Below are positions 1,170-60,050 of a DNA stretch of 64,000 nucleotides, one piece after another. Every line of letters starts with the position of its first letter. Within the stretch, counting starts at the first letter, position 1. The stretch covers positions 143,741 through 207,740 of the forward strand of contig DFOW01000001.1 of assembly GCA_002376885.1 (NCBI GenBank), read 5' to 3'. The position numbers and the translations under genes were made by a program. Under the pieces are notes generated by a model that was given only the letters and a program-made list of their open reading frames with translations, was not told the DNA's origin and made no database searches. The stretch is from Patescibacteria group bacterium UBA3531 (GTDB lineage: Bacteria; Patescibacteriota; Minisyncoccia; Phycocordibacterales; UBA3531).

Positions 1170-2945
1170 CTAGAGAACCGAACGAACATTTGCAATTATA
1201 GTTGCATCTGCTCCCAAGGCTTGGAGGAGATTCACGATGGCATCAACTTGGGACTGTGATAGTCCACTTGATCCTGATGAAGAAGGTGCTGTCGTTTGAC
1301 TGCTTGTATTCCCTGAAGTACCTGTTGATGTATTTCCTCCATTCCCATAAACCTCGTTTAGCTTTGCAATAGTTTGAGGACCAACAAGACCGTAGCCAGT
1401 TGAATCTGAAGTTCCACCGCAGATAATATTGTATTTACATTGAAAGTTTTGTACCGCTGCCTCAGTCAACTTGCCGTAATAACCACTGGTAATTCCCTCT
1501 GGATAGAGTTCAGCATCTCTTGCGAGAAATTCCTGAAGTCTCCTAACATCGTCATTATTCATTCCACGCCACAAATTGCGTGTAAAGGCTGTTCCTGTTG
1601 CCGGAGTAGTTACTATTGGAGTGGGAGTTACTGGTGTTATCGTTCCATTTGTTGAAGACGTTACCGACAAAGAAATAGCATTACTGGTCACACTTTTTTC
1701 TTCTTCTCCGGCGACGAGTCTCTGACGATCAACTACACGAAGGGAGTATAGGCCCGGACCAAAACCCCACTGTGGAACTGTCCACGTGACAGAATTTGAG
1801 GTACTTCTTGCATCATACAAGTTATCCATTCCTACAACCTCTACGTACATGCCCCCTGGGGTAAAATTAGAGCCATAAATTGTTACTGTGTCACCCGGCC
1901 CCACCTGTGATGGACTAACAGAAGTAATATTTGGAATAACTCGTACGCCACCAACGTCTGAAGCAATCATCATATAAACTCTATTACTTTTTGTCTCGGA
2001 TGCTTTCTCACCTATTTGAATCCAGTACGTACCAGCCGTCAAATTAGTAGGAACAATAAAACTTAGGGAAGTAGAGGTCAAAGAAGACGCACCTATTGTT
2101 TGTTGTGCGGTCAATGATGAACTTCCTACAAGTCCAAGTACTTCTACATATGAACCTTGTCCGAAATTATTACCATATAAAGTCATTACTTCGCCTCCCT
2201 TCGCAGAAATAGGAGAAGTTGAGTTTATGTTTGGGACAGATGGTGTGGTAAGTATTGTGAAATTAATAGGAGTACTATCATAATTACTATTCCCTCTGTG
2301 TGTAACCTTAAGCCAATACGAGCCAGAGCTCAAGCTTGATGGCACTGTAAAAGTAAGAGTGGTGTCAGTAATGTTAGTTGGCAGTGCCACCGGGCCGCTC
2401 CCAGAAGCATCGTAGATACTAATAAAGGAATCATTGTTAAACCGAGCTCCGTTAACAACCACTGTTTGACCCACACGCGCCTGGGCAGGCTCAATGGAAT
2501 GTATAAATGGTCTTGATGTCACTGGCAAAGAACCAGCGGTATTCGCTGATACCACTGTAAAAAAGTCGTCAGATTCATCGGTCACAGAACCATATCCAGT
2601 ATCATATCCACGAACACGTATCTTAAACTGTGTATTGATAGTATTTCCAACGTTGACTGTCCAATCATAGTAACCCGTATTGTCTATACTAGACACGATA
2701 GTATTTAGCGAGCCAGGCCCTCTAGACCAATCAAGATTCACCTTATCAATATTTTCACTTGCATCCCAAGTAATCCTGTACGTATCACCGGCAATAAGAG
2801 TTTCCCCACCGTTAGGAGTTTTTATCTCTATGTTTCTTGCACCGCCCTGCGCAAATGCATCCCCAGCAGAAAAAGCAATTGCCAATAAGCCAAAAAGGAG
2901 AACAATAAACGATAATATTAAAAAATGTGGTCTATTTACGATCAT
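1170..2945 (-). CDS. secreted or cell-surface protein: signal/TM anchor, Kre9/KNH-like Ser-Thr-rich module, repeated IPT/TIG-like domains, C-terminal peptidoglycan-binding (PG_binding_1-like) domain
   Basis: N-term hydrophobic segment; repeats PNI(N/T)S(T/V)SP...G..V.I.G.NF; C-term LWRGMNNDDVRRLQEFLARD...GYYGKLTEAAVQNFQ resembles PG_binding_1. Confidence 0.55.
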   Translation of the reverse strand: MIVNRPHFLILSFIVLLFGLLAIAFSAGDAFAQGGARNIEIKTPNGGETLIAGDTYRITWDASENIDKVNLDWSRGPGSLNTIVSSIDNTGYYDWTVNVGNTINTQFKIRVRGYDTGYGSVTDESDDFFTVVSANTAGSLPVTSRPFIHSIEPAQARVGQTVVVNGARFNNDSFISIYDASGSGPVALPTNITDTTLTFTVPSSLSSGSYWLKVTHRGNSNYDSTPINFTILTTPSVPNINSTSPISAKGGEVMTLYGNNFGQGSYVEVLGLVGSSSLTAQQTIGASSLTSTSLSFIVPTNLTAGTYWIQIGEKASETKSNRVYMMIASDVGGVRVIPNITSVSPSQVGPGDTVTIYGSNFTPGGMYVEVVGMDNLYDARSTSNSVTWTVPQWGFGPGLYSLRVVDRQRLVAGEEEKSVTSNAISLSVTSSTNGTITPVTPTPIVTTPATGTAFTRNLWRGMNNDDVRRLQEFLARDAELYPEGITSGYYGKLTEAAVQNFQCKYNIICGGTSDSTGYGLVGPQTIAKLNEVYGNGGNTSTGTSGNTSSQTTAPSSSGSSGLSQSQVDAIVNLLQALGADATIIANVRSVL

Positions 2946-3160
2946 GTTCTATGGACTAAAAAGCTATTAAACAAAATGTCGTCACTTTGTTTATACCATA
3001 TTTTATTGCTAGTGGTAAATAGTTTAGAGTTTAAAACAAAAAACCACCACTTAGGGCAGTTTTTTGTTTTGGCTACGGCACTCAGCCGGTATGCAATTTT
3101 TCAGAATAGTACTCGGCGTTGTTTCGACCCTCCTAGGGCGCTGAAACACCGCGCTCGAGT

Positions 3161-3235
3161 TGGCTGCCGGACTAGGACTCGAACCTAGATACCCAGGACC
3201 AAAACCTGGTGTCCTACCATTAGACGATCCGGCAA
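3161..3235 (-). tRNA. tRNA-Gln (anticodon TTG)
   Basis: Cloverleaf read by eye on minus strand: acceptor TGCCGGA/TCCGGCA, anticodon stem CCAGG/CCTGG with loop TTTTGGT, T-arm CTAGGTTCGAGTCCTAG, ends GCCA. Confidence 0.8.
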
Positions 3236-3245
3236 AATTTTTGGT

Positions 3246-4283
3246 TTATTTATCTTGCCCTATTACATCAACCAAGGCAAGTTCAAGAGGGAGCGAAGAA
3301 ATGTGTGCATACTTAATTTCTTCATATGCTTCAATCAAACGTCTCAACATACGGGGGAGTTCTTTTGCGTGTGGGTGGCTTCCAAGCGCTTCTATTTCTT
3401 TTGCTTGGTCATCTCCTAGTTCTTCCTCTAAACCTTCTTTAATACTGGACGAAAAAGAAACAAGCATGGCGTTTCTCATATAATTCATAATAAGACGAGC
3501 AAACAATTTCATGTCGGTATTTTTATTATTTGCTTTTTTGAGTGCTTCTATTCCCCTCTCTACCTCTTTATCAAGAATACTTTCTATATAATCAATCACC
3601 AGTTTGTGTGATGGTGCCCCTGTTAAGGACTCTACTTCATCACGAGTTATCGACTTGTTTTTTGTGAGACTCAAAACCTGTTCTAAATATCCTTGTGTAT
3701 CTCTAAATGATCCGTCTCCCAAGAATGCAATGAGTGACACTGCATCATCATCTATAGAAGTCTTTTCTGCTTTGGCGATATTCTCGATAGTTTTTTTGAG
3801 GATTTTTTCAGTCGGTTTTTTAAATATAAAACTTTGACACCGAGAGACGATAGTATCGGGAACTTTATGGAGTTCTGTTGTTGCTAAAATAAACACTACA
3901 TACGACGGTGGTTCTTCGAGTGTTTTTAGAAGTGCATTAAATGCTTCTTTCGTAAGCATGTGCACTTCATCTATTACATATACCTTATAAGGACTCGCAA
4001 AAGGAAGTGTGGCAACACCTTCTTTTAAGGATCTGATTTCATCAATCCCACGATTACTTGCTCCATCGATTTCATAAAGATCTTCAGGAGAAGTTTTTAA
4101 TTCACGCGCAAGAATCCGTGCAATGCTTGTTTTGCCTGTACCCCGCGGACCCGAAAAAAGATACGCATGAGAGATAGATTTATTTTTAAGAGAGTGTTTT
4201 AACGCCTCAACAATATGGTCTTGCCCAAGAACGTCATTTAAAGATTGTGGTCTGTATTTTCGATAGAGTGCAACTTGTTCCAT
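3246..4283 (-). CDS. dnaX: DNA polymerase III subunit gamma/tau (short form)
   Basis: MEQVALYRKYRPQSLNDVLGQDHIV...LFSGPRGTGKTSIARILAREL: Walker A and DnaX N-terminal signature; start moved to internal ATG (M21 of track ORF). Confidence 0.85.
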   Translation of the reverse strand: MEQVALYRKYRPQSLNDVLGQDHIVEALKHSLKNKSISHAYLFSGPRGTGKTSIARILARELKTSPEDLYEIDGASNRGIDEIRSLKEGVATLPFASPYKVYVIDEVHMLTKEAFNALLKTLEEPPSYVVFILATTELHKVPDTIVSRCQSFIFKKPTEKILKKTIENIAKAEKTSIDDDAVSLIAFLGDGSFRDTQGYLEQVLSLTKNKSITRDEVESLTGAPSHKLVIDYIESILDKEVERGIEALKKANNKNTDMKLFARLIMNYMRNAMLVSFSSSIKEGLEEELGDDQAKEIEALGSHPHAKELPRMLRRLIEAYEEIKYAHISSLPLELALVDVIGQDK

Positions 4284-5324: not shown

Positions 5325-6308
5325 TTATTGTATCACAGGTGTTTTTGTTGAGGTAAGAAAGTTCTCAATCTTCTCCTCCACCTCTTTTGCACTGTCTGCC
5401 TCCATAAGTTCCATACGTAACTCTTTGGCCCCATCAAAACCATTTACATAGGCCTTAAAGTGTCGCTTCATAACAGCAAAACTCTTTAGGCCTCCCATAA
5501 GTTCATCATAGAGTTTTGTGTGCTCAACAAGGGCACGGAGTATTTCTTCGTGAGAAAGATCCTCTCGATCAATATCTTTACTAAATAACCATGGGTTTCC
5601 GTAAATAGCACGGCCAAGCATAACCCCATCACATCCTGTCTCTTTAACTTTTTGGTGTGCATCTTTGATTGAAAGAGCGTCGCCGTTACCTAAAATAAGC
5701 GTATCCTTGCACGTCCCGTCACGGATTGCGACAATCTCTTTCATCTTCTCCCAATGTGCAGGAACTTTTGACATTTCTTTACGGGTTCGCAAATGCACGG
5801 TAAGAGCTGGGATATTCATTTCTAACAATTTTGGAATCCATGTTTGTATTTCATCGGTATTGTATCCAATGCGGGTTTTAACTGACACCGGCAAATCTCC
5901 TGCCCCCTCCATAGTTTTCTTAATGATCTCTTGTGCGAGTTCTGGATTTTTTATGAGTCCTGCTCCTGCTAATTGTTTTTCAACACTTCTATCAGGGCAT
6001 CCCATGTTGAGATCAATTCCATCAAAACCAAGCTCCTGTGCAAGTTGTGCTGTTTTTTTAAAATTCTCTGGTTTACCACCAAAAATCTGAAGCACTATTG
6101 GTCGCTCTTCTTCGGCGTAAACGATATCTTTTAAAATTCTTTTTTTGCCAACGCTCTGGAGTCCGTCGCACGAGACAAATTCGGTAAACATAACATCGGG
6201 TTTACCGCGCCGCGCAATAATAGCCCGATATGGCGGGTCAGTAACGTCTGCCATAGGTGCAAGCACCATAAGAGGCTTATTTAATTTCTCCCAAAATCCT
6301 TTCTTCAT
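5325..6308 (-). CDS. dus: tRNA-dihydrouridine synthase
   Basis: MVLAPMADVTDPPYRAIIARRG...FTEFVS.DGL and TIM-barrel Dus motifs; start at internal ATG (MKKGFWEKL) leaving a 4-bp gap to upstream gene. Confidence 0.8.
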   Translation of the reverse strand: MKKGFWEKLNKPLMVLAPMADVTDPPYRAIIARRGKPDVMFTEFVSCDGLQSVGKKRILKDIVYAEEERPIVLQIFGGKPENFKKTAQLAQELGFDGIDLNMGCPDRSVEKQLAGAGLIKNPELAQEIIKKTMEGAGDLPVSVKTRIGYNTDEIQTWIPKLLEMNIPALTVHLRTRKEMSKVPAHWEKMKEIVAIRDGTCKDTLILGNGDALSIKDAHQKVKETGCDGVMLGRAIYGNPWLFSKDIDREDLSHEEILRALVEHTKLYDELMGGLKSFAVMKRHFKAYVNGFDGAKELRMELMEADSAKEVEEKIENFLTSTKTPVIQ

Positions 6309-23970: not shown

Positions 23971-25479
23971 ATGGCAGAAAAACGCGAACAAAAAGAAAGA
24001 CCGCCTATTGTTGCCATCATGGGACACATTGACCATGGTAAATCTACCCTGCTTGATTACATCAGAGAATCAAACGTAGTAGAGGGAGAGGCTGGAGGAA
24101 TCACTCAGCACGTAAACGCCTACGAAATCACTCATAAAAATAAAGAAGGAGAGCGTCGAATTACCTTTATCGACACTCCCGGACACGAGGCATTTACTGG
24201 TTCTCGAAAAACAGGAGCCCGCATTGCTGACATTGCTCTTTTAATTGTTTCTGCAGAAGAGGGAGTAAAGGAGCAAACAAAGGAATCTCTTAAAATGATT
24301 ACCGAGGCAAAAGCTCCCTACATTGTAGTCATTAATAAAATTGATAAACCAAACGCAAATCCCGACAAAGCAAAGCAAGACTTAGCAGAAATCGATGTAT
24401 TTGTTGAGGGCTATGGAGGACATATTCCTTGTGCGCTTGTGTCGTCAAAAACAGGAGAAGGAATTGATGACCTTCTTGATGTCATTCTTTTGTCTGCAGA
24501 CTTGGAGGAGCTGAAAGGAACACCTGATGTGCCCGCAACGGGATTTGTTCTTGAGTCACACGTTGATAAAAAAGTGGGTGTGACTGGAACACTCATTATT
24601 AAAGATGGAACCCTTAAAACAGGAATGTTTTTATGTATCGATGGGATTGTTTCAAAAATAAAACGACTCGAAGACTTTACCGGAAAACAAATTAAAGAAG
24701 CATCATTTTCAAGTCCTATTCGAATTGCCGGCCTTTCAGAGGTTCCTCCTGCTGACACTCCATTTGAATCATTTGAAAATAAAAAAGACGCAGAAGAACA
24801 TGCAAAAGTCTTTGCACAAGAAAAACACAGAGCCCCCGACAAAGAAGTAAACGGCGACGAAGACGCTCGCCTTATGATCCCTCTTGTTATAAAAGCAGAT
24901 GTATTGGGAACACTTGAAGCCATTGAGAAAGAAGTGAATAAATTAGACATTCCAGAAGACCGAGCGTATATAAAAATTCTTGCAAAAGGAATCGGAGATG
25001 TGAGCGAAAACGATCTTAAAGTAGCAGCGAGTGCACAAGATCCCATTGTGATTGGGTTTAACGTTAAGGTAGACAAAGCGGCTAAAGATTTTGCAGATAA
25101 TGCAGGGATCACTCCCCAACTCTTCTCTATTATTTATAAGATTAATGAATATCTTCAGCCCGAAATCACTAATCGCATCCCTAAAATAAAAGTTGAGGAA
25201 GTTGCTGGTTCTGCAAAAATCATCAAGCTCTTTAGCCAGGTAAAAAATAAACAGCTCGTGGGGATGAAAGTAAACGACGGTACTATCGCGCTCGCTAAAC
25301 CAATTCGAGTGATACGAAACGACGCTGAAGTTGGACGAGCACGCGCTCACGAAATGCAAATTCAAAACATAAAAATCACCGAGGGAAATAAAGGAGATCA
25401 AATTGGTGCCCAAGTAGAATCAAAACTGACGCTTGCTCTTGGAGATGTTTTGGAATTCGTAGATGAAGTTGAAAAATAA
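23971..25479 (+). CDS. infB: translation initiation factor IF-2 (short N-terminus)
   Basis: G-domain IVAIMGHIDHGKSTLLD...DTPGHEAF...NKID, IF-2 C-terminal beta-barrels. Confidence 0.9.
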   Translation: MAEKREQKERPPIVAIMGHIDHGKSTLLDYIRESNVVEGEAGGITQHVNAYEITHKNKEGERRITFIDTPGHEAFTGSRKTGARIADIALLIVSAEEGVKEQTKESLKMITEAKAPYIVVINKIDKPNANPDKAKQDLAEIDVFVEGYGGHIPCALVSSKTGEGIDDLLDVILLSADLEELKGTPDVPATGFVLESHVDKKVGVTGTLIIKDGTLKTGMFLCIDGIVSKIKRLEDFTGKQIKEASFSSPIRIAGLSEVPPADTPFESFENKKDAEEHAKVFAQEKHRAPDKEVNGDEDARLMIPLVIKADVLGTLEAIEKEVNKLDIPEDRAYIKILAKGIGDVSENDLKVAASAQDPIVIGFNVKVDKAAKDFADNAGITPQLFSIIYKINEYLQPEITNRIPKIKVEEVAGSAKIIKLFSQVKNKQLVGMKVNDGTIALAKPIRVIRNDAEVGRARAHEMQIQNIKITEGNKGDQIGAQVESKLTLALGDVLEFVDEVEK

Positions 25480-25480
25480 T

Positions 25481-25816
25481 ATGGAATTTACTCGCAAAGA
25501 CAGAGTGCTTTCTACGCTAAAAAAAGTAGTGGCCGACTTTTTAAAAGAAGAAGCTGGTCCATCGCTTTTAATTACGGTTACTAATATTTCTATCTCGAAA
25601 GACTACAAATACTGTACGGTGTATGTCTCAGTCTTTCCAGAAAAAGAAGAAAGGGGTGTTTTAGAAAACCTTGAAAAAAGGAAGAAAGACCTGCGGAATT
25701 TTGTTAAAATACATACGCGTCTTAAGCGTCTTCCCTTCTTTGACGTTAAGGTAGACAAAGGAGAGAAGAGTCGTCAAAAAATTGACGCAATCGCACAAAA
25801 CGATAAGCTAGAATAA
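25481..25816 (+). CDS. rbfA: ribosome-binding factor A
   Basis: Immediately after infB (classic infB-rbfA order); MEFTRKDRVLSTLKK...KH fold-like; start at internal ATG. Confidence 0.75.
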   Translation: MEFTRKDRVLSTLKKVVADFLKEEAGPSLLITVTNISISKDYKYCTVYVSVFPEKEERGVLENLEKRKKDLRNFVKIHTRLKRLPFFDVKVDKGEKSRQKIDAIAQNDKLE

Positions 25817-25883
25817 CTCTTGGACCAGCAAACTAATAATTTCACAATACTACAAGGGAACTCAAACCCTTGTAATTATTTTT

Positions 25884-26630
25884 ATGCAGTATATAATATT
25901 ATCACCTTGTATGGGTATAAAATATTTAATAGACGAGCAATACTTTGAGAGCTGGTCCCCTGAAATGGCATACATTCTTGGATTTTTATATGCAGACGGA
26001 AGTTTGGAAAACGCTCCTAAACTGCGAGGAAAATATGTCAGAGCAACAAGCACCGATCTTGAAGTAATAAAACATATAAAAAAATCTTTACGTTCTGAAC
26101 ACAGAATAATCATAATACCCTCTTTTAGAAAGAGAAAAGAGAGATACTTGTTCAGAGCTGGAAGCCATGTTCTTTTTGATTCATTGACACAACATGGCCT
26201 TTTTCCAAATAAGTCTTTATCAATGAAGTTCCCCAAAAACATCCCTTCAAACTACCTAAGTCATTTTATAAGGGGATATTTTGATGGTGATGGATGTGTT
26301 CACTTGTCACAGGCCCGCAACCGAGAAGGTGCTCTACTGGTTAAAAGATTGGGCGTTGTCTTTACAAGCGGAAGTGAGTTATTTTTAAAAGAATTAGAAC
26401 GAGAAATCAGAAATGTCTTAAATATCAAAAAAAGAAATATCTATAAGAGTCGTCGTTCATTCCAGTTACGATATAGCACGACTGACAGTATAGAACTATT
26501 TACATTGATATATGCAAATACAAAAAATTTATTTTATTTAGGTAGAAAAAAAGAGATTTTCCTTCGATATTTTAAGTTGCGACCTCAGAGAATTAATACT
26601 AATATTGGTAAAATGTTAAAAAATATGTAA
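25884..26630 (+). CDS. free-standing LAGLIDADG homing endonuclease (two LAGLIDADG motifs)
   Basis: LGFLYADGS and IRGYFDGDGCV motifs about 100 aa apart; basic C-terminus. Confidence 0.75.
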   Translation: MQYIILSPCMGIKYLIDEQYFESWSPEMAYILGFLYADGSLENAPKLRGKYVRATSTDLEVIKHIKKSLRSEHRIIIIPSFRKRKERYLFRAGSHVLFDSLTQHGLFPNKSLSMKFPKNIPSNYLSHFIRGYFDGDGCVHLSQARNREGALLVKRLGVVFTSGSELFLKELEREIRNVLNIKKRNIYKSRRSFQLRYSTTDSIELFTLIYANTKNLFYLGRKKEIFLRYFKLRPQRINTNIGKMLKNM

Positions 26631-26635
26631 CCATG

Positions 26636-26709
26636 GCCCAGTGGCGAAGTTGGTTAACGCGACGGTCTGCAAAACCGTTATGCACCGGTTCGAATCCGGT
26701 CTGGGCCTT
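26636..26709 (+). tRNA. tRNA-Cys (anticodon GCA)
   Basis: Acceptor GGCCCAG/CTGGGCC, anticodon loop CTGCAAA, T-arm ACCGGTTCGAATCCGGT. Confidence 0.8.
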
Positions 26710-26726
26710 ACGCAGCTATAGTCATG

Positions 26727-26808
26727 GGCTAGTGGCGGAACCGGTATACGCGCAACACTTAAAATGTTGTCCCGATTCGGGATGTGGGTTCGAGTCCCAC
26801 CTAGCCCA
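26727..26808 (+). tRNA. tRNA-Leu (anticodon TAA)
   Basis: Acceptor GGGCTAG/CTAGCCC, anticodon stem CAACA/TGTTG loop CTTAAAA, long variable arm, T-arm GTGGGTTCGAGTCCCAC. Confidence 0.85.
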
Positions 26809-26835
26809 CAAGAAGAAATTTCAAATAATATTAAA

Positions 26836-26848
26836 TAACCGCCCATAG
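26836..26848. repeat. 13-bp duplicate of the tRNA-Lys 5' end (taaccgcccatag)
   Basis: Exact copy of 26916-26928, about 80 bp upstream of the tRNA. Confidence 0.6.
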
Positions 26849-26918
26849 TTGATAGAGATTGAAAGCGTGGGACGCTTTAAATGCGATAAACGGTAAGGTA
26901 ATATAGGAAAAAATTTAA

Positions 26919-26991
26919 CCGCCCATAGCTCAGCTGGTAGAGCAGACGGCTCTTAACCGTAAGGTCCTAGGTTCGAATCCTAGTGGGCGGA
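26919..26991 (+). tRNA. tRNA-Lys (anticodon CTT)
   Basis: Acceptor CCGCCCA/TGGGCGG, D-arm GCTCAGCTGGTAGAGC, anticodon loop CTCTTAA, T-arm CTAGGTTCGAATCCTAG. Confidence 0.75.
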
Positions 26992-27010
26992 CAAGCAATA
27001 AAATTGCTTT

Positions 27011-27093
27011 GGGCGAGTGGCGGAATTGGTAGACGCGCTGGTCTTAGGAACCAGTCTGCTTTGCAGGTGGAGGTTCGAGTCCTCTCTCGCCCA
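27011..27093 (+). tRNA. tRNA-Leu (anticodon TAG)
   Basis: Acceptor GGGCGAG/CTCGCCC, anticodon stem CTGGT/ACCAG loop CTTAGGA, long variable arm. Confidence 0.85.
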
Positions 27094-27101
27094 CAAGAAA
27101 A

Positions 27102-27136
27102 ACACCACACGGCTTACGGCTTTGCGGTGTTTTTGT
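27102..27136 (+). terminator. imperfect hairpin + TTTTTG after tRNA cluster
   Basis: caccacacggcttacggctttgcggtgtttttg. Confidence 0.45.
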
Positions 27137-27149
27137 TATCATTTTTTGT

Positions 27150-28133
27150 ATGGTTATAGAAGCACTCTTTTGGAGCGTTGTTTTTATTGTGGCACTTTAC
27201 GTCCTCGTAAAAGGATCTGATTATTTTATTCACCAAGCAGAGATTATTGGTGTCTCGTTTAAGCTTTCGCCTTTTGTTATTGGAATTTTGATTATTGGAA
27301 TCGGAACTTCTCTGCCAGAACTCACTACTGCAATCGTTGCTGTCATAAAAGGCACTACCGAGATTGTGACCGCAAATGCCGTCGGTTCAAATATTGCCAA
27401 TACTTTATTTATTTTAGGACTCGCAGCTATCATTACGCGCAACTTAACGGTTCAAAAAAACTTAATTTATTTAGATCTCCCACTTCTTACTGCCGTAACT
27501 CTTTTATTCCTTGGTGTTGCTGTTGATGGAAATATTATTCTTGATAACTCTATTCCCAGTATCGTCACACGGCCTGAAGCAATCTTTTTGATACTTACCT
27601 ATTTTGTCTATCTGGGTTATTCGCTTTTTTATAAAGACGATTATACAAAAAAAATTGATGATCTTTTAAATGGCCGAGAAGATCATTCCGACTGGAGGAA
27701 TTGGCTTCTTATGTTGTTTGGGCTTGCAGGTGTCATTATTGGCGCAAAGTATGTTGTTGATGCAACACTCGAGCTCTCTGTTATTTTTGGAATTGGAGTA
27801 AGTGTCATCTCTTTGTTTGCTATTGCGCTTGGAACGTCCTTGCCCGAGCTTTTTGTTTCTGTTCGCGCTATTCGAATTGGAAAACCAGAGATTGCTATCG
27901 GGAATATTTTTGGTTCCAATATGTTTAACTTGCTCCTCTTAATTGGAATCCCTGGACTCTTTACAAACCTTGTAATTGACCCTGTGACGCTCACCATTGG
28001 ATTGCCATTTTTGGCAGTAGCAACAGTCCTCTTTGTGGTCTCTGGAATCAGCAATAAGGTCCACTTTTGGGATGGGGCCATGTTTGTGCTCATGTATGCC
28101 CTTTTTGTGGCTAAACTGCTGGGTTTTTTCTAG
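27150..28133 (+). CDS. Ca2+/Na+ antiporter (CaCA family, YrbG-like)
   Basis: Two Na_Ca_ex repeats: GTSLPELTTAIVAV and GTSLPELFVSVRAIRIG...GNIFGSN. Confidence 0.8.
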   Translation: MVIEALFWSVVFIVALYVLVKGSDYFIHQAEIIGVSFKLSPFVIGILIIGIGTSLPELTTAIVAVIKGTTEIVTANAVGSNIANTLFILGLAAIITRNLTVQKNLIYLDLPLLTAVTLLFLGVAVDGNIILDNSIPSIVTRPEAIFLILTYFVYLGYSLFYKDDYTKKIDDLLNGREDHSDWRNWLLMLFGLAGVIIGAKYVVDATLELSVIFGIGVSVISLFAIALGTSLPELFVSVRAIRIGKPEIAIGNIFGSNMFNLLLLIGIPGLFTNLVIDPVTLTIGLPFLAVATVLFVVSGISNKVHFWDGAMFVLMYALFVAKLLGFF

Positions 28134-28192: not shown

Positions 28193-28296
28193 TTTGATGC
28201 AGGTTAGATAGCACCGCGGTGGTGCACCAGACTGTACGTCGCAGTGCGACAGTTCATCGTCAACTCACTTTCTAGCGAAGAAAAGAGGTAATATTC

Positions 28297-29475
28297 ATGT
28301 CAATCATAACCCTGACGTTGATCGTCTTCGTCACGCTCCTTGTTCTGAGTGTGCCGTTGTTCGTCCTCGTTGCGTGGCTCCTGGCCTACCTGGATATCTT
28401 TTTTGGATTCCTCCAGGAGAATACGGGCTTCGCCAAGATCGTTGGAGACAACCAACTTCAAAGCATGCAAATCGCTTCGAAGAGTCAGCACCTCAAAAGG
28501 AAGGTGGTCCAACACCCTGAGGCGGGCGCAATCGAGACGTGGGTTCTGGAACAAGGAGCAGATCCCAACCCTGCCTTCGGCCTTATTGGTTGGATGGAGC
28601 GCAAGCTTGGTGTCTACTGGATTGGTGTTTGGCCGTTCCAAAGGCGCTACCGGTACGAGATGTTCCGAACCGTCTTCGATCGGAGTGCTGACGCAGACGA
28701 GAACACGATCCTCCGGAAGAATGACCAGAGCAAGTTCTTCTACGTTCAGCCGGTGGAGTACGCCTTCTCTCTCCTCGGAGCAGAGACAGGCAGTGCCTTC
28801 GCTGGCGACACAGAAGATACGGACACTTCGTCTCGGGGTGGCAACATCCCGGTGAACGTGAAGTTCTCCGTGTTCCTCTTGATCACAAGACCCGAGATTG
28901 CCCTCTTCAAGAACCCTGTATGGTTCGAGCGAGCAAGCTCGATCCTTCTGTCCGCAGCGAAGAACTACGTCGGCACTCGTGCGTATGAGGCGCTCCGTGG
29001 CGAAAGCCGATCGGACACCGCAGACGTCGAGACCGATGATGCCTTCGCGGGCTACATGCGGGATCTGAACGAAGCGATTCCGGGAACCGGTCACGGCTTC
29101 GAATCCGAGATCGGTGCCAAGATCGTCGGAGCGGCCATCAGAGCCGTCGACATCACGGCGGAGGGCGAAGAGGCCCGAAGCGCAACGCTGCTCCTCTACG
29201 GAGAAGAGCAGCGCGCCAAGGGAATCCGAGCCGTCGCTGATGCGCGTCGCTACGAGCTCGAACAGGAGCTCGATGCAGTCGATGGATCCCCCAACGGGGG
29301 GCACGTCCGTCGGATGCGCGCGATCGAGCGTGCAGGTGAGCGTGGTAACACAATCATCTTCACGAGCGGCGGCGACGAAAAGGAGGATCGTGTCGCAGCG
29401 AACCTTCTGGCTGGCCGCAAGGGTGAAGACCCCTCAAGCGAAGGCACCGATGACTCCACCGAGAAGGAGGAGTAG
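28297..29475 (+). CDS. G+C-rich SPFH/band-7-like membrane protein (cassette D)
   Basis: N-terminal TM, beta-rich core with ...ASSILLSAAKNYVGTRAYEAL..., EIGAKIVGAAIRAVDI, then A/E/R-rich coiled-coil AEGEEARSA...RAKGIRAVADARRYE as in HflK/C-flotillin. Confidence 0.5.
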   Translation: MSIITLTLIVFVTLLVLSVPLFVLVAWLLAYLDIFFGFLQENTGFAKIVGDNQLQSMQIASKSQHLKRKVVQHPEAGAIETWVLEQGADPNPAFGLIGWMERKLGVYWIGVWPFQRRYRYEMFRTVFDRSADADENTILRKNDQSKFFYVQPVEYAFSLLGAETGSAFAGDTEDTDTSSRGGNIPVNVKFSVFLLITRPEIALFKNPVWFERASSILLSAAKNYVGTRAYEALRGESRSDTADVETDDAFAGYMRDLNEAIPGTGHGFESEIGAKIVGAAIRAVDITAEGEEARSATLLLYGEEQRAKGIRAVADARRYELEQELDAVDGSPNGGHVRRMRAIERAGERGNTIIFTSGGDEKEDRVAANLLAGRKGEDPSSEGTDDSTEKEE

Positions 29476-30252
29476 ATGAAGATGCCTGACTCGATAAGGG
29501 GGCTTGGGTGGAAGCGGTTCTCCGCAACTGCCCTTACCTCGTTCATCCTCGTCATTGTCTCGTTCATGATCGTGAACGCAGGCGAGGGCGAGGCAGAGAA
29601 GGTCTTCAAGACTCTCTCTGTGATTGCGACCGGGATTGGAGCACTCCTCGTTCTCCTGCTTCTTCTCGTGATCGTGTCGTCTCTTGCTCGTAGGCGTCGG
29701 TCTCTCAAAAAAGAGACTCCCGTCGTCGACAAGCCGACCAAACCAGGAAGATGGCAGAAGTTCAGGGCCACTCCCTTCTTCTGGACACTCTTCAAGGTCT
29801 CCGCCTTCGTAGTGGCAGTAGTCATTGCAATAAGCGGATTCCCTCTGTTGCGTGACGCCATGAACATCCCCGACGTGGGGCCCAGGAATGGAGATCTCAA
29901 GTTCTCCAAGTGGACGCTCTCCAGTACACCACTGTCGTACAACCTGAATCGAACGACACGTGGTACGGTCAAGATCTGGAAGAAAGAGCGTCGCTTTGAG
30001 CTTCCGTTCTTCTTGAACATGAAGCTCATGGGCGAGGATGGAGTTCTCGTGGGGCAAATCACCTCGAGTGACTTTGCCATGGGCGAGACCTTCCCCGTCA
30101 CCTGGGAGATGACCTGGCGAGACCATATGACCGGAGACGGAGCCCTCGAGTGTCACTACAACAAACACCACAGCGTGATTGCTTGTAACGGCACCATCTG
30201 CGGCGAAGATTCCGAAGGTCGGAGGTGTCGTCGAGTGAACTTTAGCGGCTAG
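29476..30252 (+). CDS. G+C-rich membrane protein (3 TM + Cys-containing soluble C-domain), start abuts upstream stop; possible NfeD-like partner
   Basis: TAG-ATG junction at 29473-29478; three hydrophobic helices; no family recognised. Confidence 0.4.
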   Translation: MKMPDSIRGLGWKRFSATALTSFILVIVSFMIVNAGEGEAEKVFKTLSVIATGIGALLVLLLLLVIVSSLARRRRSLKKETPVVDKPTKPGRWQKFRATPFFWTLFKVSAFVVAVVIAISGFPLLRDAMNIPDVGPRNGDLKFSKWTLSSTPLSYNLNRTTRGTVKIWKKERRFELPFFLNMKLMGEDGVLVGQITSSDFAMGETFPVTWEMTWRDHMTGDGALECHYNKHHSVIACNGTICGEDSEGRRCRRVNFSG

Positions 30253-30267
30253 AAAGGAGAAGACATC

Positions 30268-30339
30268 CTCACATCTAAATATATAGATGTGAGAAAATGG
30301 GCCCTGTCCGCCATATGCGGATAGGGCCTGTTTCTTTGT
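30268..30339. terminator. tandem hairpins between convergent cassette D and pilin array
   Basis: CTCACATCTA-aatatat-AGATGTGAG and GGGCCCTGTCCGC-cata-TGCGGATAGGGCC + tgtttcttt. Confidence 0.55.
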
Positions 30340-30360
30340 CTGCCACCTTCGTAAAATTCT

Positions 30361-30825
30361 CTATGGCAATATATTACAAAAAGGAGAATCTGCTGGAATA
30401 CAAAGTTCACGACCCTGATTACCAGAATTTCCTGTTGGCTGATTTGGAACCAAATTTCCAGGGTCGCTAATAGGTTGTGGTGGCTCGGTAAAAAATGGGC
30501 TTTCTCCCGGAACACCACCAAAAAAGATTGTTAAAATAATGGTCACAATCCCCCACAACGAAACAAGAACAAAAATTCCTACAACACCAATCACCAAAAT
30601 CCTTCGGGCTCCTTCTTTTTTTGTTGGGTCCTCACTCGAAGACAAATATTTAATAACACCCCAAATAAATACAACTACTGCCACCCCAACCAAAAGTGGA
30701 ACAACGTCACGAAGTGGAATAATTAAATTGTATACATAGACATCAAACGAGGTTTGCGCCGAGACAATAAATGGCACAAACAATAAAGAAAGGGTTGTAC
30801 TGATTCCAAAAAATTTCTTTAACAT
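30361..30825 (-). CDS. pilin-like paralog P1 (Sec signal + 2 TM, VirB2/TrbC-like T4SS-pilin architecture) with Pro-rich C-tail
   Basis: MLKKFFGISTTLSLLFVPFIVSAQ signal; LVGVAVVVFIWGVIKYLSSSEDPTKK...ILVIGVVGIFVLVSLWGI; start at internal ATG. Confidence 0.5.
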   Translation of the reverse strand: MLKKFFGISTTLSLLFVPFIVSAQTSFDVYVYNLIIPLRDVVPLLVGVAVVVFIWGVIKYLSSSEDPTKKEGARRILVIGVVGIFVLVSLWGIVTIILTIFFGGVPGESPFFTEPPQPISDPGNLVPNQPTGNSGNQGRELCIPADSPFCNILP

Positions 30826-59680: not shown

Positions 59681-59716
59681 AAATCCCGGGATTAACCGGG
59701 ATTTTTGATATAGATT
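59681..59716. terminator. bidirectional terminator AAAAATCCCGG-gattaa-CCGGGATTTTT shared by HTH gene and rnpB
   Basis: Perfect palindrome with A/T runs both sides. Confidence 0.7.
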
Positions 59717-60050
59717 GCCTTGTGCTTATAAGCCGGATTCTGTACTACGCAAAGCGTAGCGATAGCCATTTATCTGTCGTGTTTGTTACCAAACAGATCA
59801 AGCGGCACTCTCACACATGGTGAGCACGACCTTGCACCCAGGTAAGGATTTAGCCGTTTCACCTCTTATATTTCTATAAGAGCTTACCCCGAGGGGTATT
59901 GAGCCTATTTCTAAACTCAACGTCTCTGCTCGCACCTCTCGTATTGCTACGGACGGGCGTTACCCGCTACCCTGCTCCTTGTTTACACAAGGGAGTGTCC
60001 GGACTTTCCTCTCCTAAAAATAGGAGCGACTACCCAACACAAGGCGAGAT
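59712..60050 (-). ncRNA. rnpB: RNase P RNA (bacterial type A-like)
   Basis: Minus strand: P4 strands GAGAGGAAAGTCCGGACACTCCC and GTACAGAATCCGGCTTA; GGGTAACGCC P8/P9-like motif; P1 pairing between ATCTCGCCTTGTGTT (5') and AGCACAAGGCAATCT (3'). Confidence 0.8.

Follow-up and report, generated by a model that had tools for sequence, protein, structure and literature searches.

The window analysed here is a 64,000-nucleotide stretch of contig DFOW01000001.1 from Patescibacteria group bacterium UBA3531, and it carries, between rbfA and a cluster of four tRNA genes, an open reading frame (ORF) for a free-standing, double-motif LAGLIDADG homing endonuclease (the homing endonuclease gene, HEG). Positions 25884–26708 probably represent one copy of a mobile cassette of Patescibacteria (candidate phyla radiation, CPR) that consists of a conserved 26-bp element, the HEG and the tRNA-Cys(GCA) gene, and we put the probability of this explanation as a whole at about 0.68. 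Its parts differ in strength: that the HEG is a mobile element of the homing type is very likely, while the joint proposal that nucleotides 11–36 of tRNA-Cys are the target and that the 26-bp element is an operator could fall either way. Comparison of the loci shows that the cassette lies always directly 5′ of, and includes, tRNA-Cys, in an older infB–rbfA–tRNA-Cys–tRNA-Leu(UAA) arrangement. We regard it as a site-specific mobile element under purifying selection because of its linkage to tRNA-Cys, the existence of empty and remnant sites, the identity of HEG proteins across divergent hosts, the low ratio of non-synonymous to synonymous substitution rates (dN/dS) and the invariance of the catalytic aspartates.

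The endonuclease gene and its product

The first-pass annotation of this DNA had placed a double-motif LAGLIDADG ORF between rbfA and tRNA-Cys, and this was confirmed by Pfam, by the presence of both motifs (..ILGFLYADGS.. and ..IRGYFDGDGC..) and by the tRNA calls. When the hidden Markov model (HMM) search that it had proposed was run, the ORF scored 46.1 bits against Pfam PF14528 LAGLIDADG_3, clearly above the cut-off of 22.5 (E = 5.8e-12), and 21.7 bits against PF00961 LAGLIDADG_1, slightly short of the cut-off of 23.1. LAGLIDADG was the sole domain detected by the Pfam search, with no extra DNA-binding domain; NCBIfam gave no name for the protein and a PDB sequence search returned marginal matches only. 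The catalytic aspartates, numbered from Met10 of the longest ORF, are D29 (YADG) and D127 (GYFDGDG), and both are unchanged in 78 of the 78 family members aligned. As all homologues begin with MGIKY and gene callers also pick this methionine, the true start is probably 25911, giving a protein of 239 aa; the ATG at 25884 falls within the conserved non-coding element described below.

An AlphaFold model of the protein, built on a 24-sequence alignment (predicted local distance difference test score 91.9, predicted template modelling score 0.89), has the two tandem alpha-beta-beta-alpha-beta-beta-alpha domains and the DNA-binding saddle of LAGLIDADG enzymes. The best Foldseek matches to the model in the PDB were 2dch (I-Tsp061I), 4lq0 (I-LtrWI), 1p8k (I-AniI) and I-OnuI, with E values of about 1e-9 to 1e-10, and the top structural matches were without exception monomeric LAGLIDADG homing endonucleases or maturases. 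The dN/dS values of 10 pairs of HEGs lay between 0.05 and 0.16, and judged by this measure the protein is under strong purifying selection; the copy in the window is intact, and it is probably active or was so until recently. The GC content of the ORF is 0.33–0.36 vs 0.40–0.45 in its flanks. The core of the family comprises about 74 clusters (50% identity, E ≤ 1e-30) within the far larger LAGLIDADG_3 superfamily.

Linkage to tRNA-Cys across Patescibacteria

Relatives of the HEG were sought in one genome per GTDB species, and among the matches listed at least 529 of 600 candidate stretches from these species representatives encode one. The best 80 loci, from metagenome-assembled genomes of Patescibacteria throughout, were taken for comparison; 79 of them were informative in that the contig extends past the ORF. 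In all 79 a tRNA-Cys(GCA) gene follows the HEG directly and on the same strand. In 68 loci the HEG stop codon falls in the interval from 23 nt inside tRNA-Cys to 24 nt ahead of it; in 22 of these 68 the two genes overlap by exactly 18 nt, the stop being a TAG in the D-loop and the last five HEG codons (G-H-V-V/A-K) corresponding to nucleotides 1–15 of the tRNA. The overlap is 21 nt in 9 loci, and in a further 10 the HEG frame reads through the whole of tRNA-Cys. In most loci, HEG-bearing and HEG-less alike, the gene after tRNA-Cys is tRNA-Leu(UAA), and the upstream order nifS, DUF4446, infB, rbfA is found in about half of the HEG loci; where the infB–rbfA synteny is broken the ORF and tRNA-Cys are still together. 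An intron-borne homologue in rRNA or tRNA genes, which had been suggested as something to look for, was found at none of the 80 loci.

Two observations on the overlapping genes should be added. In 31 relatives (L009, L016, L020, L030 and others) a HEG stop codon, TAG or TAA, lies in the tRNA-Cys D-loop and the last five to six codons are formed by nucleotides 1–18 of the tRNA. Processing by RNase P of such transcripts, or of those with a read-through frame, would leave an mRNA without a stop codon. Phages were considered as carriers of the cassette and rejected: relatives on viral contigs are at most 36% identical to the HEG and are not adjacent to a tRNA save in one case out of 80.

Empty, decayed and occupied sites

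A set of HEG-less loci was obtained by a scan of metagenome contigs seeded with IF2, the generic back-translated patterns of which recovered mostly non-CPR bacteria, and 16 loci were informative. These 16 CPR-type loci keep the order infB–(rbfA)–tRNA-Cys–tRNA-Leu(UAA) without an intact HEG, and the states of the site 5′ of tRNA-Cys are 15 empty and one decayed vs 79 occupied. In several HEG-less loci tRNA-Cys begins 3–110 nt past the preceding gene. The decayed site (L133) retains at 6098–6241 a remnant encoding 48 aa of the HEG C-terminus (HMM positions 197–236, E = 7.5e-9), which abuts tRNA-Cys (6248). Because the synteny occurs without the HEG and because of this remnant, we assign the infB–rbfA synteny to the tRNA and regard the ORF as an insertion that may be present, absent or decayed. 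The sequences upstream of the empty-site tRNA-Cys genes show no conservation. As a separate observation, a TATAAT-like hexamer is often found from a few to about 20 nt upstream of tRNA-Cys nucleotide 1 in the empty sites L087–L124 (for example L097, L098 and L117), which puts the probable start of tRNA-Cys transcription at empty sites on the mature 5′ end or slightly before it. L133 also has a distinct, weakly related LAGLIDADG-like ORF at 2889–3899 on the minus strand.

The extent of the inserted unit can be seen in a trio of loci with similar hosts, in which IF2 is 80% identical between L117 (empty) and L053 (occupied) and 81% identical between L053 and L027 (occupied). A gap of 3 nt, TCT, separates the IF2 stop codon from tRNA-Cys in L117, and in L053 this stop codon is followed immediately by the conserved element, the ORF and tRNA-Cys. 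The tRNA-Cys genes of L053 and L027 are 98.6% identical to each other and 69–70% identical to that of L117, and tRNA-Arg(CCG), two genes further on, shows 89% identity whichever pair of the three is compared. Because the element, the ORF and the whole tRNA-Cys allele differ together in this trio, we take these three parts as the unit of the cassette.

Transfer between divergent hosts

By their IF2, RbfA and NifS proteins, three groups of hosts, {L019, L029, L030, L034}, {L020, L048} and {L041}, are 42–55% identical to one another, and across the same groups the HEG proteins are 67–83% identical. For L034 and L041 the values are 83% for the HEG, 54% for IF2, 55% for RbfA and 55% for NifS. At the DNA level identity between these two is about 45–60% in rbfA and 80–93% from about 35 bp before the start codon, where the element begins, through the ORF; the tRNA-Cys genes are 100% identical, including a rare A2:U71 pair, and identity falls past the 3′ end of the tRNA. 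Close host pairs show the reverse pattern, with IF2 81–83% identical and the HEG only 61–66%. From the identities of the close pairs and those across groups it follows that the HEG evolves faster than IF2 by vertical descent and yet over long distances looks ‘younger’ than its hosts. The Mantel correlation between HEG and IF2 came to 0.47, as against about 0.8 between housekeeping genes, and mean pairwise identity at the same loci is 49–51% for the HEG vs 44% for IF2, 37% for RbfA and 42% for NifS. Taken together these comparisons show that the HEG has moved horizontally, in company with the tRNA-Cys allele, between lineages whose flanking housekeeping genes are about 50% identical. The suggestion in the first-pass annotation of past homing or recombination at the tRNA locus is thus upheld as regards site-specific mobility (from the empty, occupied and decayed sites, the horizontal transfer and the co-varying tRNA allele), but the relevant tRNA is tRNA-Cys, which adjoins the ORF in every relative, and not tRNA-Lys.

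A promoter element that mimics tRNA-Cys

Of the 81 HEG-bearing loci scanned, about 58 have the conserved element, TTGCAGTATATATCATTACCAC(C/T)TAT, just ahead of the start codon. As its reverse complement the element shows AAGTGGTAA and CTGCAA separated by 9 nt, which are the D-loop and the anticodon loop of tRNA-Cys at the correct spacing, and the stem-coding bases of the tRNA are replaced in the element by AT-rich sequence. A position weight matrix (PWM) was built from the element and scanned over all loci with a threshold of 12 bits. In the 64-kb window 25884–25909 was the sole match at or above this threshold, and in the HEG-less set (80 HEG-less loci) six of the eight such matches were to the antisense strand of tRNA-Cys nucleotides 11–36, all in one register; other tRNA species scored 5 bits or less.

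The element occurs in three layouts. In one it lies between a TTGCAG −35 and a TATAAT −10 sequence that ends 6–7 nt before a GTG or ATG start, and this short distance from the −10 region to the start codon implies a leaderless mRNA. In another it comes straight after TATAAT with the ATG at its 3′ edge, an arrangement that the window resembles in spacing, though there the predicted −10 lies within the element. In the last it is inverted and lies between −35 and −10 (L043, L067 and L074). The argument that the element is a protein-binding DNA site is made because it is independent of orientation and always overlaps the promoter. That it is a mere ordinary promoter or an RNA leader was judged unlikely, since the sequence is kept in three promoter layouts and also inverted, and in one class lies upstream of the likely start of transcription. 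In the window we infer from its sequence that 25870–25897 functions as a promoter; its −10 (25892–25897) ends 13 nt before the ATG at 25911 and the leader would be very short or absent. It may be noted separately that the −10 stands 6–7 nt before GTG or ATG in many relatives (class A, for example L019 5966–6003) as compared with 13 nt in the window, with no Shine–Dalgarno sequence, which suggests that HEG mRNAs are leaderless or nearly so.

Alleles of tRNA-Cys

The D-loop of tRNA-Cys in the window, AAGTTGGTTAA, is 2 nt longer than the canonical AAGTGGTAA, and the TTACCAC half-site is both shifted and disrupted; we infer that the longer D-loop makes this allele resistant. Other D-loop variants linked to the HEG include AAGTAGCTAA, AAGAGGTAA and AAATGGTAA. 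The median PWM score of tRNA-Cys was 8.9 bits in HEG-less vs 3.0 bits in HEG-bearing loci (Mann–Whitney p = 4.6e-4) and the exact D-loop AAGTGGTAA was present in 8 of 16 HEG-less vs 3 of 79 HEG-bearing loci (Fisher p = 1.3e-5), p-values that overstate the significance as the loci are phylogenetically non-independent, and in samples that differ, the HEG-bearing loci having been chosen by HEG similarity and the HEG-less loci by IF2 similarity. The difference in D-loop and PWM score by HEG status is therefore best described as suggestive.

Over loci L001–L166 there are two main classes of tRNA-Cys allele, G18/U55 (..TGG.., TTCGA; 46 genes) and A18/G55 (..TAG.., TGCAA; 44 genes). Nucleotide 18 of the D-loop and nucleotide 55 of the T-loop covary almost perfectly (p = 1.5e-22), no G18/G55 mixtures being seen, and A18/G55 looks like a compensated change of the conserved 18–55 tertiary contact. 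A systematic difference between HEG-bearing and HEG-less loci in these main classes was considered and rejected, as there is no association with HEG status (p = 0.59) and only the exact D-loop sequence differs.

A possible mechanism and points against it

A mechanism that would account for these features is as follows. The enzyme would recognise about 26 bp coding for tRNA-Cys from the D-loop to the anticodon loop (nucleotides 11–36; antisense consensus TTGCAG-N9-TTACCACTT) and would cut sensitive alleles where a genome has no cassette. The break would then be repaired from a donor with the cassette, and the HEG copied in together with a resistant, D-loop-variant tRNA-Cys, that is, intronless homing with co-conversion, the net effect being that an essential single-copy gene is cleaved and a rescue copy supplied. 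The promoter element, which keeps the loop-coding contacts around an AT-rich centre, would serve the enzyme as an operator for repressing its own transcription, as I-TevI does. The endonuclease mRNA and the four tRNAs probably share one transcript, which would run from 25870–25897 through the ORF and the tRNAs to the inverted repeat at 27095–27137, probably the terminator of the unit, and RNase P would free tRNA-Cys by cutting 4 nt after the HEG stop codon. More tentatively, and at somewhat less than even odds, the whole might be a natural ‘cleave-and-rescue’ drive that cuts the single essential tRNA-Cys gene, travels with a recoded resistant copy and throttles itself via a mimic operator in a leaderless promoter; repeated sweeps through the phylum would have shaped the D-loop variants and perhaps the A18/G55 alleles. 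In such a cassette the 5′ end of tRNA-Cys supplies the last codons and the stop codon of the HEG, as in the relatives of the overlap class.

Several points, besides the sampling and the non-independence of the loci given above, count against this explanation. About 20 of 78 loci have no recognisable element. A near-canonical D-loop is kept by a few HEG-bearing loci (L004, L042 and L086) and variant D-loops are present in several HEG-less ones, and the lack of association of the G18/U55 and A18/G55 classes with HEG status belongs here also. All eight contigs that carry the exact RbfA of the window have the HEG, so that no polymorphism is seen within the population. The conservation of the HEG above that of IF2 and the near-universal intactness of the sampled copies fit a function beneficial to the host as well. 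The proposals as to the target site, the resistant D-loop variants and the operator come from sequence comparison. Finally, with left flanks about 50% identical, ordinary homologous repair cannot take place on that side; as a conjecture, the left junction might arise by illegitimate joining, homology being used on the side of the tRNA.

Alternative explanations

We at first favoured a domesticated, vertically inherited host protein of the WhiA-like LAGLIDADG type, ancestral to Patescibacteria and often lost, that would bind the 26-bp element and so regulate transcription of the tRNA-Cys operon, or else would be a factor, linked with infB–rbfA, for the maturation or processing of RNA. Such a protein would account for the position of the HEG downstream of infB–rbfA in about half of the loci (those of the first two homologues, P0016 and P0035, included), for its mean identity of 49–51%, above IF2, RbfA and NifS, for dN/dS values of 0.05–0.16, for a conserved DNA element overlapping the promoter, for the significant correlation with host divergence (Mantel r 0.47–0.63) and for fixation of the HEG in the window's own population. 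It was dropped on the evidence of the 15 empty sites, where infB–rbfA–tRNA-Cys synteny belongs to the tRNA, of the decayed remnant in L133 and of horizontal transfer, to which HEG identities of 67–83% across hosts 42–55% identical and the sharp boundaries of DNA identity both point. It is opposed too by the faster evolution of the HEG than of IF2 in close hosts (61–66% vs 81–83%) and by the invariant catalytic aspartates together with the lack by Pfam of an added DNA-binding domain; WhiA-like proteins have lost the catalytic residues, have gained a helix-turn-helix and are inherited vertically, and the HEG fits none of these. We now consider a domesticated host protein unlikely. A selfish homing endonuclease with a target outside tRNA-Cys, at the upstream junction or at some unrelated site, is in our view quite unlikely; the element would then be the remnant of an ancient inverted duplication of tRNA-Cys kept as a promoter. 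The promoter-like TTGCAG and TATAAT in or next to the element, and the overlap of tRNA-Cys allele types between HEG-bearing and HEG-less genomes, would be in keeping with this, but the element keeps the exact loop-coding positions with the same 9-nt spacing in three layouts and both orientations, the unconserved sequence upstream of empty sites cannot supply a recognition site, and the canonical D-loop is depleted in HEG-bearing genomes.

It seems very improbable indeed that the ORF lies in an overlooked group I intron or an intein, or that a 13-bp repeat near tRNA-Lys, described below, is a scar of homing. Many group I introns occur in the rRNA and tRNA genes of Patescibacteria, some of them with endonuclease genes (PMC11270868, PMC13011429), and the repeat is beyond chance. 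However, Rfam detected no group I or group II intron at the gathering threshold and none at E ≤ 10 over 25300–27400, all four tRNAs of the window are intact and uninterrupted, and the ORF has the rbfA stop codon on one side and nucleotide 1 of tRNA-Cys on the other, leaving no host reading frame for an intein. On these grounds a hidden intron or intein was rejected, and the earlier statement that the ORF stands outside both was borne out. The repeat lies 200 bp from the ORF, beyond two other tRNAs, and in relatives tRNA-Lys is found at variable distance and on either strand; no link between the repeat and the ORF was found and the homing scar was rejected. The mobile cassette is thus the explanation that we prefer.

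Relation to known systems

Intronless homing with co-conversion has been described for the Seg and Mob enzymes of phage T4, including SegB in the T4 tRNA region (PMC2988022; PMC3984707). The Seg and Mob genes of T-even phages resemble the HEG in that they are intergenic, outside any intron or intein, and, in so far as the proposal for the HEG is right, in the cleavage of a conserved neighbouring gene, the co-conversion of flanking sequence and the protection of the donor by differences in its own copy of the target. SegB moreover sits in and acts on a cluster of tRNA genes (PMC2988022), an action that would be shared by the HEG. They differ in being GIY-YIG or HNH enzymes of phage genomes that spread in mixed infections, whereas the HEG is a LAGLIDADG_3 enzyme of the cellular chromosomes of Patescibacteria. 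A further difference is that the ORF of the HEG adjoins or runs into the tRNA gene proposed as its target, and that it seems to bring with it an entire tRNA allele as a replacement. The operator of I-TevI resembles its homing site, with a match of 15 in 20 nt, and mediates autorepression (PMC2988022). A target-like sequence similarly overlaps the promoter of the HEG, here the 26-bp inverted mimic of tRNA-Cys nucleotides 11–36; I-TevI differs in being a GIY-YIG enzyme encoded in an intron, and the presumed operator of the HEG differs from its proposed target mainly in the central 9 bp, which are AT-rich as opposed to stem-coding and GC-rich.

With enzymes of the I-Tsp061I, I-AniI, I-LtrWI, I-OnuI and I-DmoI type the HEG product shares the predicted fold, with two LAGLIDADG helices each ending in a catalytic aspartate, and its size of about 240 aa and expected DNA site of about 20–26 bp are those of the monomeric LAGLIDADG enzymes of solved structure. 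The latter are 12–17% identical to it and are intron-encoded, in rRNA genes or in protein genes of organelles, whereas the HEG is free-standing and linked to a tRNA. The LAGLIDADG enzymes of rRNA insertions in CPR bacteria (for example I-ShaI) have in common with it the host phylum, the superfamily and a patchy, horizontally influenced distribution, but they are mostly single-domain LAGLIDADG_1 or LAGLIDADG_2 proteins of about 180–210 aa in group I introns of 16S and 23S genes, with LAGLIDADG_3 in only a few 16S insertions (PMC11270868). HNH enzymes in tRNA-Asn introns have also been described (PMC13011429). A free-standing LAGLIDADG family beside tRNA-Cys is not described in the searchable literature.

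The free-standing homing endonuclease is already known as a kind, and what would be new here is that it occurs across a phylum in the chromosomes of cells, that its target is a tRNA, that its ORF is physically fused to the tRNA gene, that a tRNA allele travels with it and that its operator mimics the target. Synthetic ‘cleave and rescue’ drives are engineered, Cas9-based, eukaryotic systems that couple a nuclease, by which an essential gene is destroyed, with a recoded version of that gene that resists cleavage. The HEG cassette would have the same arrangement of nuclease and resistant copy, in this case a natural one read from sequence.

The homing endonucleases of Patescibacteria described so far lie inside rRNA and tRNA introns. 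The HEG is free-standing, and of the genomes scanned at species level at least several hundred carry it; it is tied to one essential tRNA gene, which it seemingly both targets and replaces. If the explanation is correct, the intronless homing of phages would have its equivalent in cellular chromosomes, and engineered cleave-and-rescue drives would have a natural parallel. Distant lineages of Patescibacteria would have to exchange and recombine DNA often enough for a selfish element to persist, and a selfish nuclease would be able to drive the sequence evolution of a tRNA. The family would also furnish meganucleases that are monomeric and compact (about 240 aa), each with a natural pair of target and operator for studies of specificity. 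For annotation, it explains why the HEG ORF runs into tRNA-Cys in many assemblies.

Other features of the window

The features of the locus are collected in Table 1. The four-tRNA cluster beside the ORF, which had been reported from the sequence, was found by ARAGORN and Rfam alike.

Table 1. Positions of the cassette, its neighbours and related features in the 64,000-nucleotide window
Feature	Position	Strand	Remarks
IF2 (infB)	23971–25479		short, 502 aa; last codons overlap rbfA start at 25463
rbfA stop codon	25814–25816
Terminator-like hairpin and T-run, 3′ of rbfA	25851–25874	+	sets infB–rbfA unit apart from endonuclease unit
Promoter-like site (TTGTAA, 16 nt, TATAAT)	25870–25897	+	10/12 matches
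Conserved 26-bp element, ATGCAGTATATAATATTATCACCTTG; family consensus TTGCAGTATATATCATTACCACCTAT	25884–25909	+	PWM 23.4 bits; inverted mimic of tRNA-Cys nt 11–36
LAGLIDADG homing endonuclease gene (HEG), free-standing, double-motif	25911–26630	+	239 aa; longest ORF, from 25884, 248 aa; Pfam LAGLIDADG_3
tRNA-Cys(GCA)	26635–26708	+	ARAGORN and Rfam; starts 4 nt past endonuclease stop codon
tRNA-Cys segment (about nt 12–38) matching the element	26646–26672	+	D-loop AAGTTGGTTAA
tRNA-Leu(UAA)	26726–26809	+	ARAGORN and Rfam; conserved right-hand neighbour of cassette
Two 13-bp direct repeats with 67 bp between	26836–26928	+	copies at 26836–26848 and 26916–26928
tRNA-Lys(CUU)	26919–26992	+	ARAGORN and Rfam
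tRNA-Leu(UAG)	27011–27094	+	ARAGORN and Rfam
Inverted repeat, then T-rich sequence	27095–27137	+	15-nt arms, 87% complementary, 13 nt apart
Bacterial RNase P RNA class A	59713–60045	−	Rfam, 122 bits; relevant to processing of endonuclease–tRNA transcript

The presence of an exact 13-bp repeat 80 bp upstream of tRNA-Lys, claimed in the first-pass annotation, was verified: TAACCGCCCATAG occurs exactly twice in the 64 kb, with the copies 80 bp apart, as compared with a chance expectation of 0.02, and two or more copies were found in none of 100 shuffles. The last 10 bases of TAACCGCCCATAG are nucleotides 1–10 of tRNA-Lys. Because a second match to tRNA-Lys follows the repeat in the spacer and is colinear with it (AACGGTAAGGT and AACCGTAAGGT; shuffle p about 0.02), the repeat probably belongs to a partial tandem duplication, now decayed, that covered the 5′ two-thirds of tRNA-Lys, a reading to which these matches lend weak support. 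The tRNA-Lys(CUU) gene itself opens with a C1:G72 pair, the usual pair being G1:C72.

The IF2 of the window is without the long N-terminal region of typical bacterial IF2. Further downstream is a high-GC island at 28200–30400 (GC 0.52–0.64 vs about 0.40 around it), the ORFs of which at 28297–29475 (392 aa) and 29476–30252 (258 aa) match no Pfam or NCBIfam family above cut-off. This island adjoins a gene with weak similarity to type IV secretion system pilins and may be foreign DNA.

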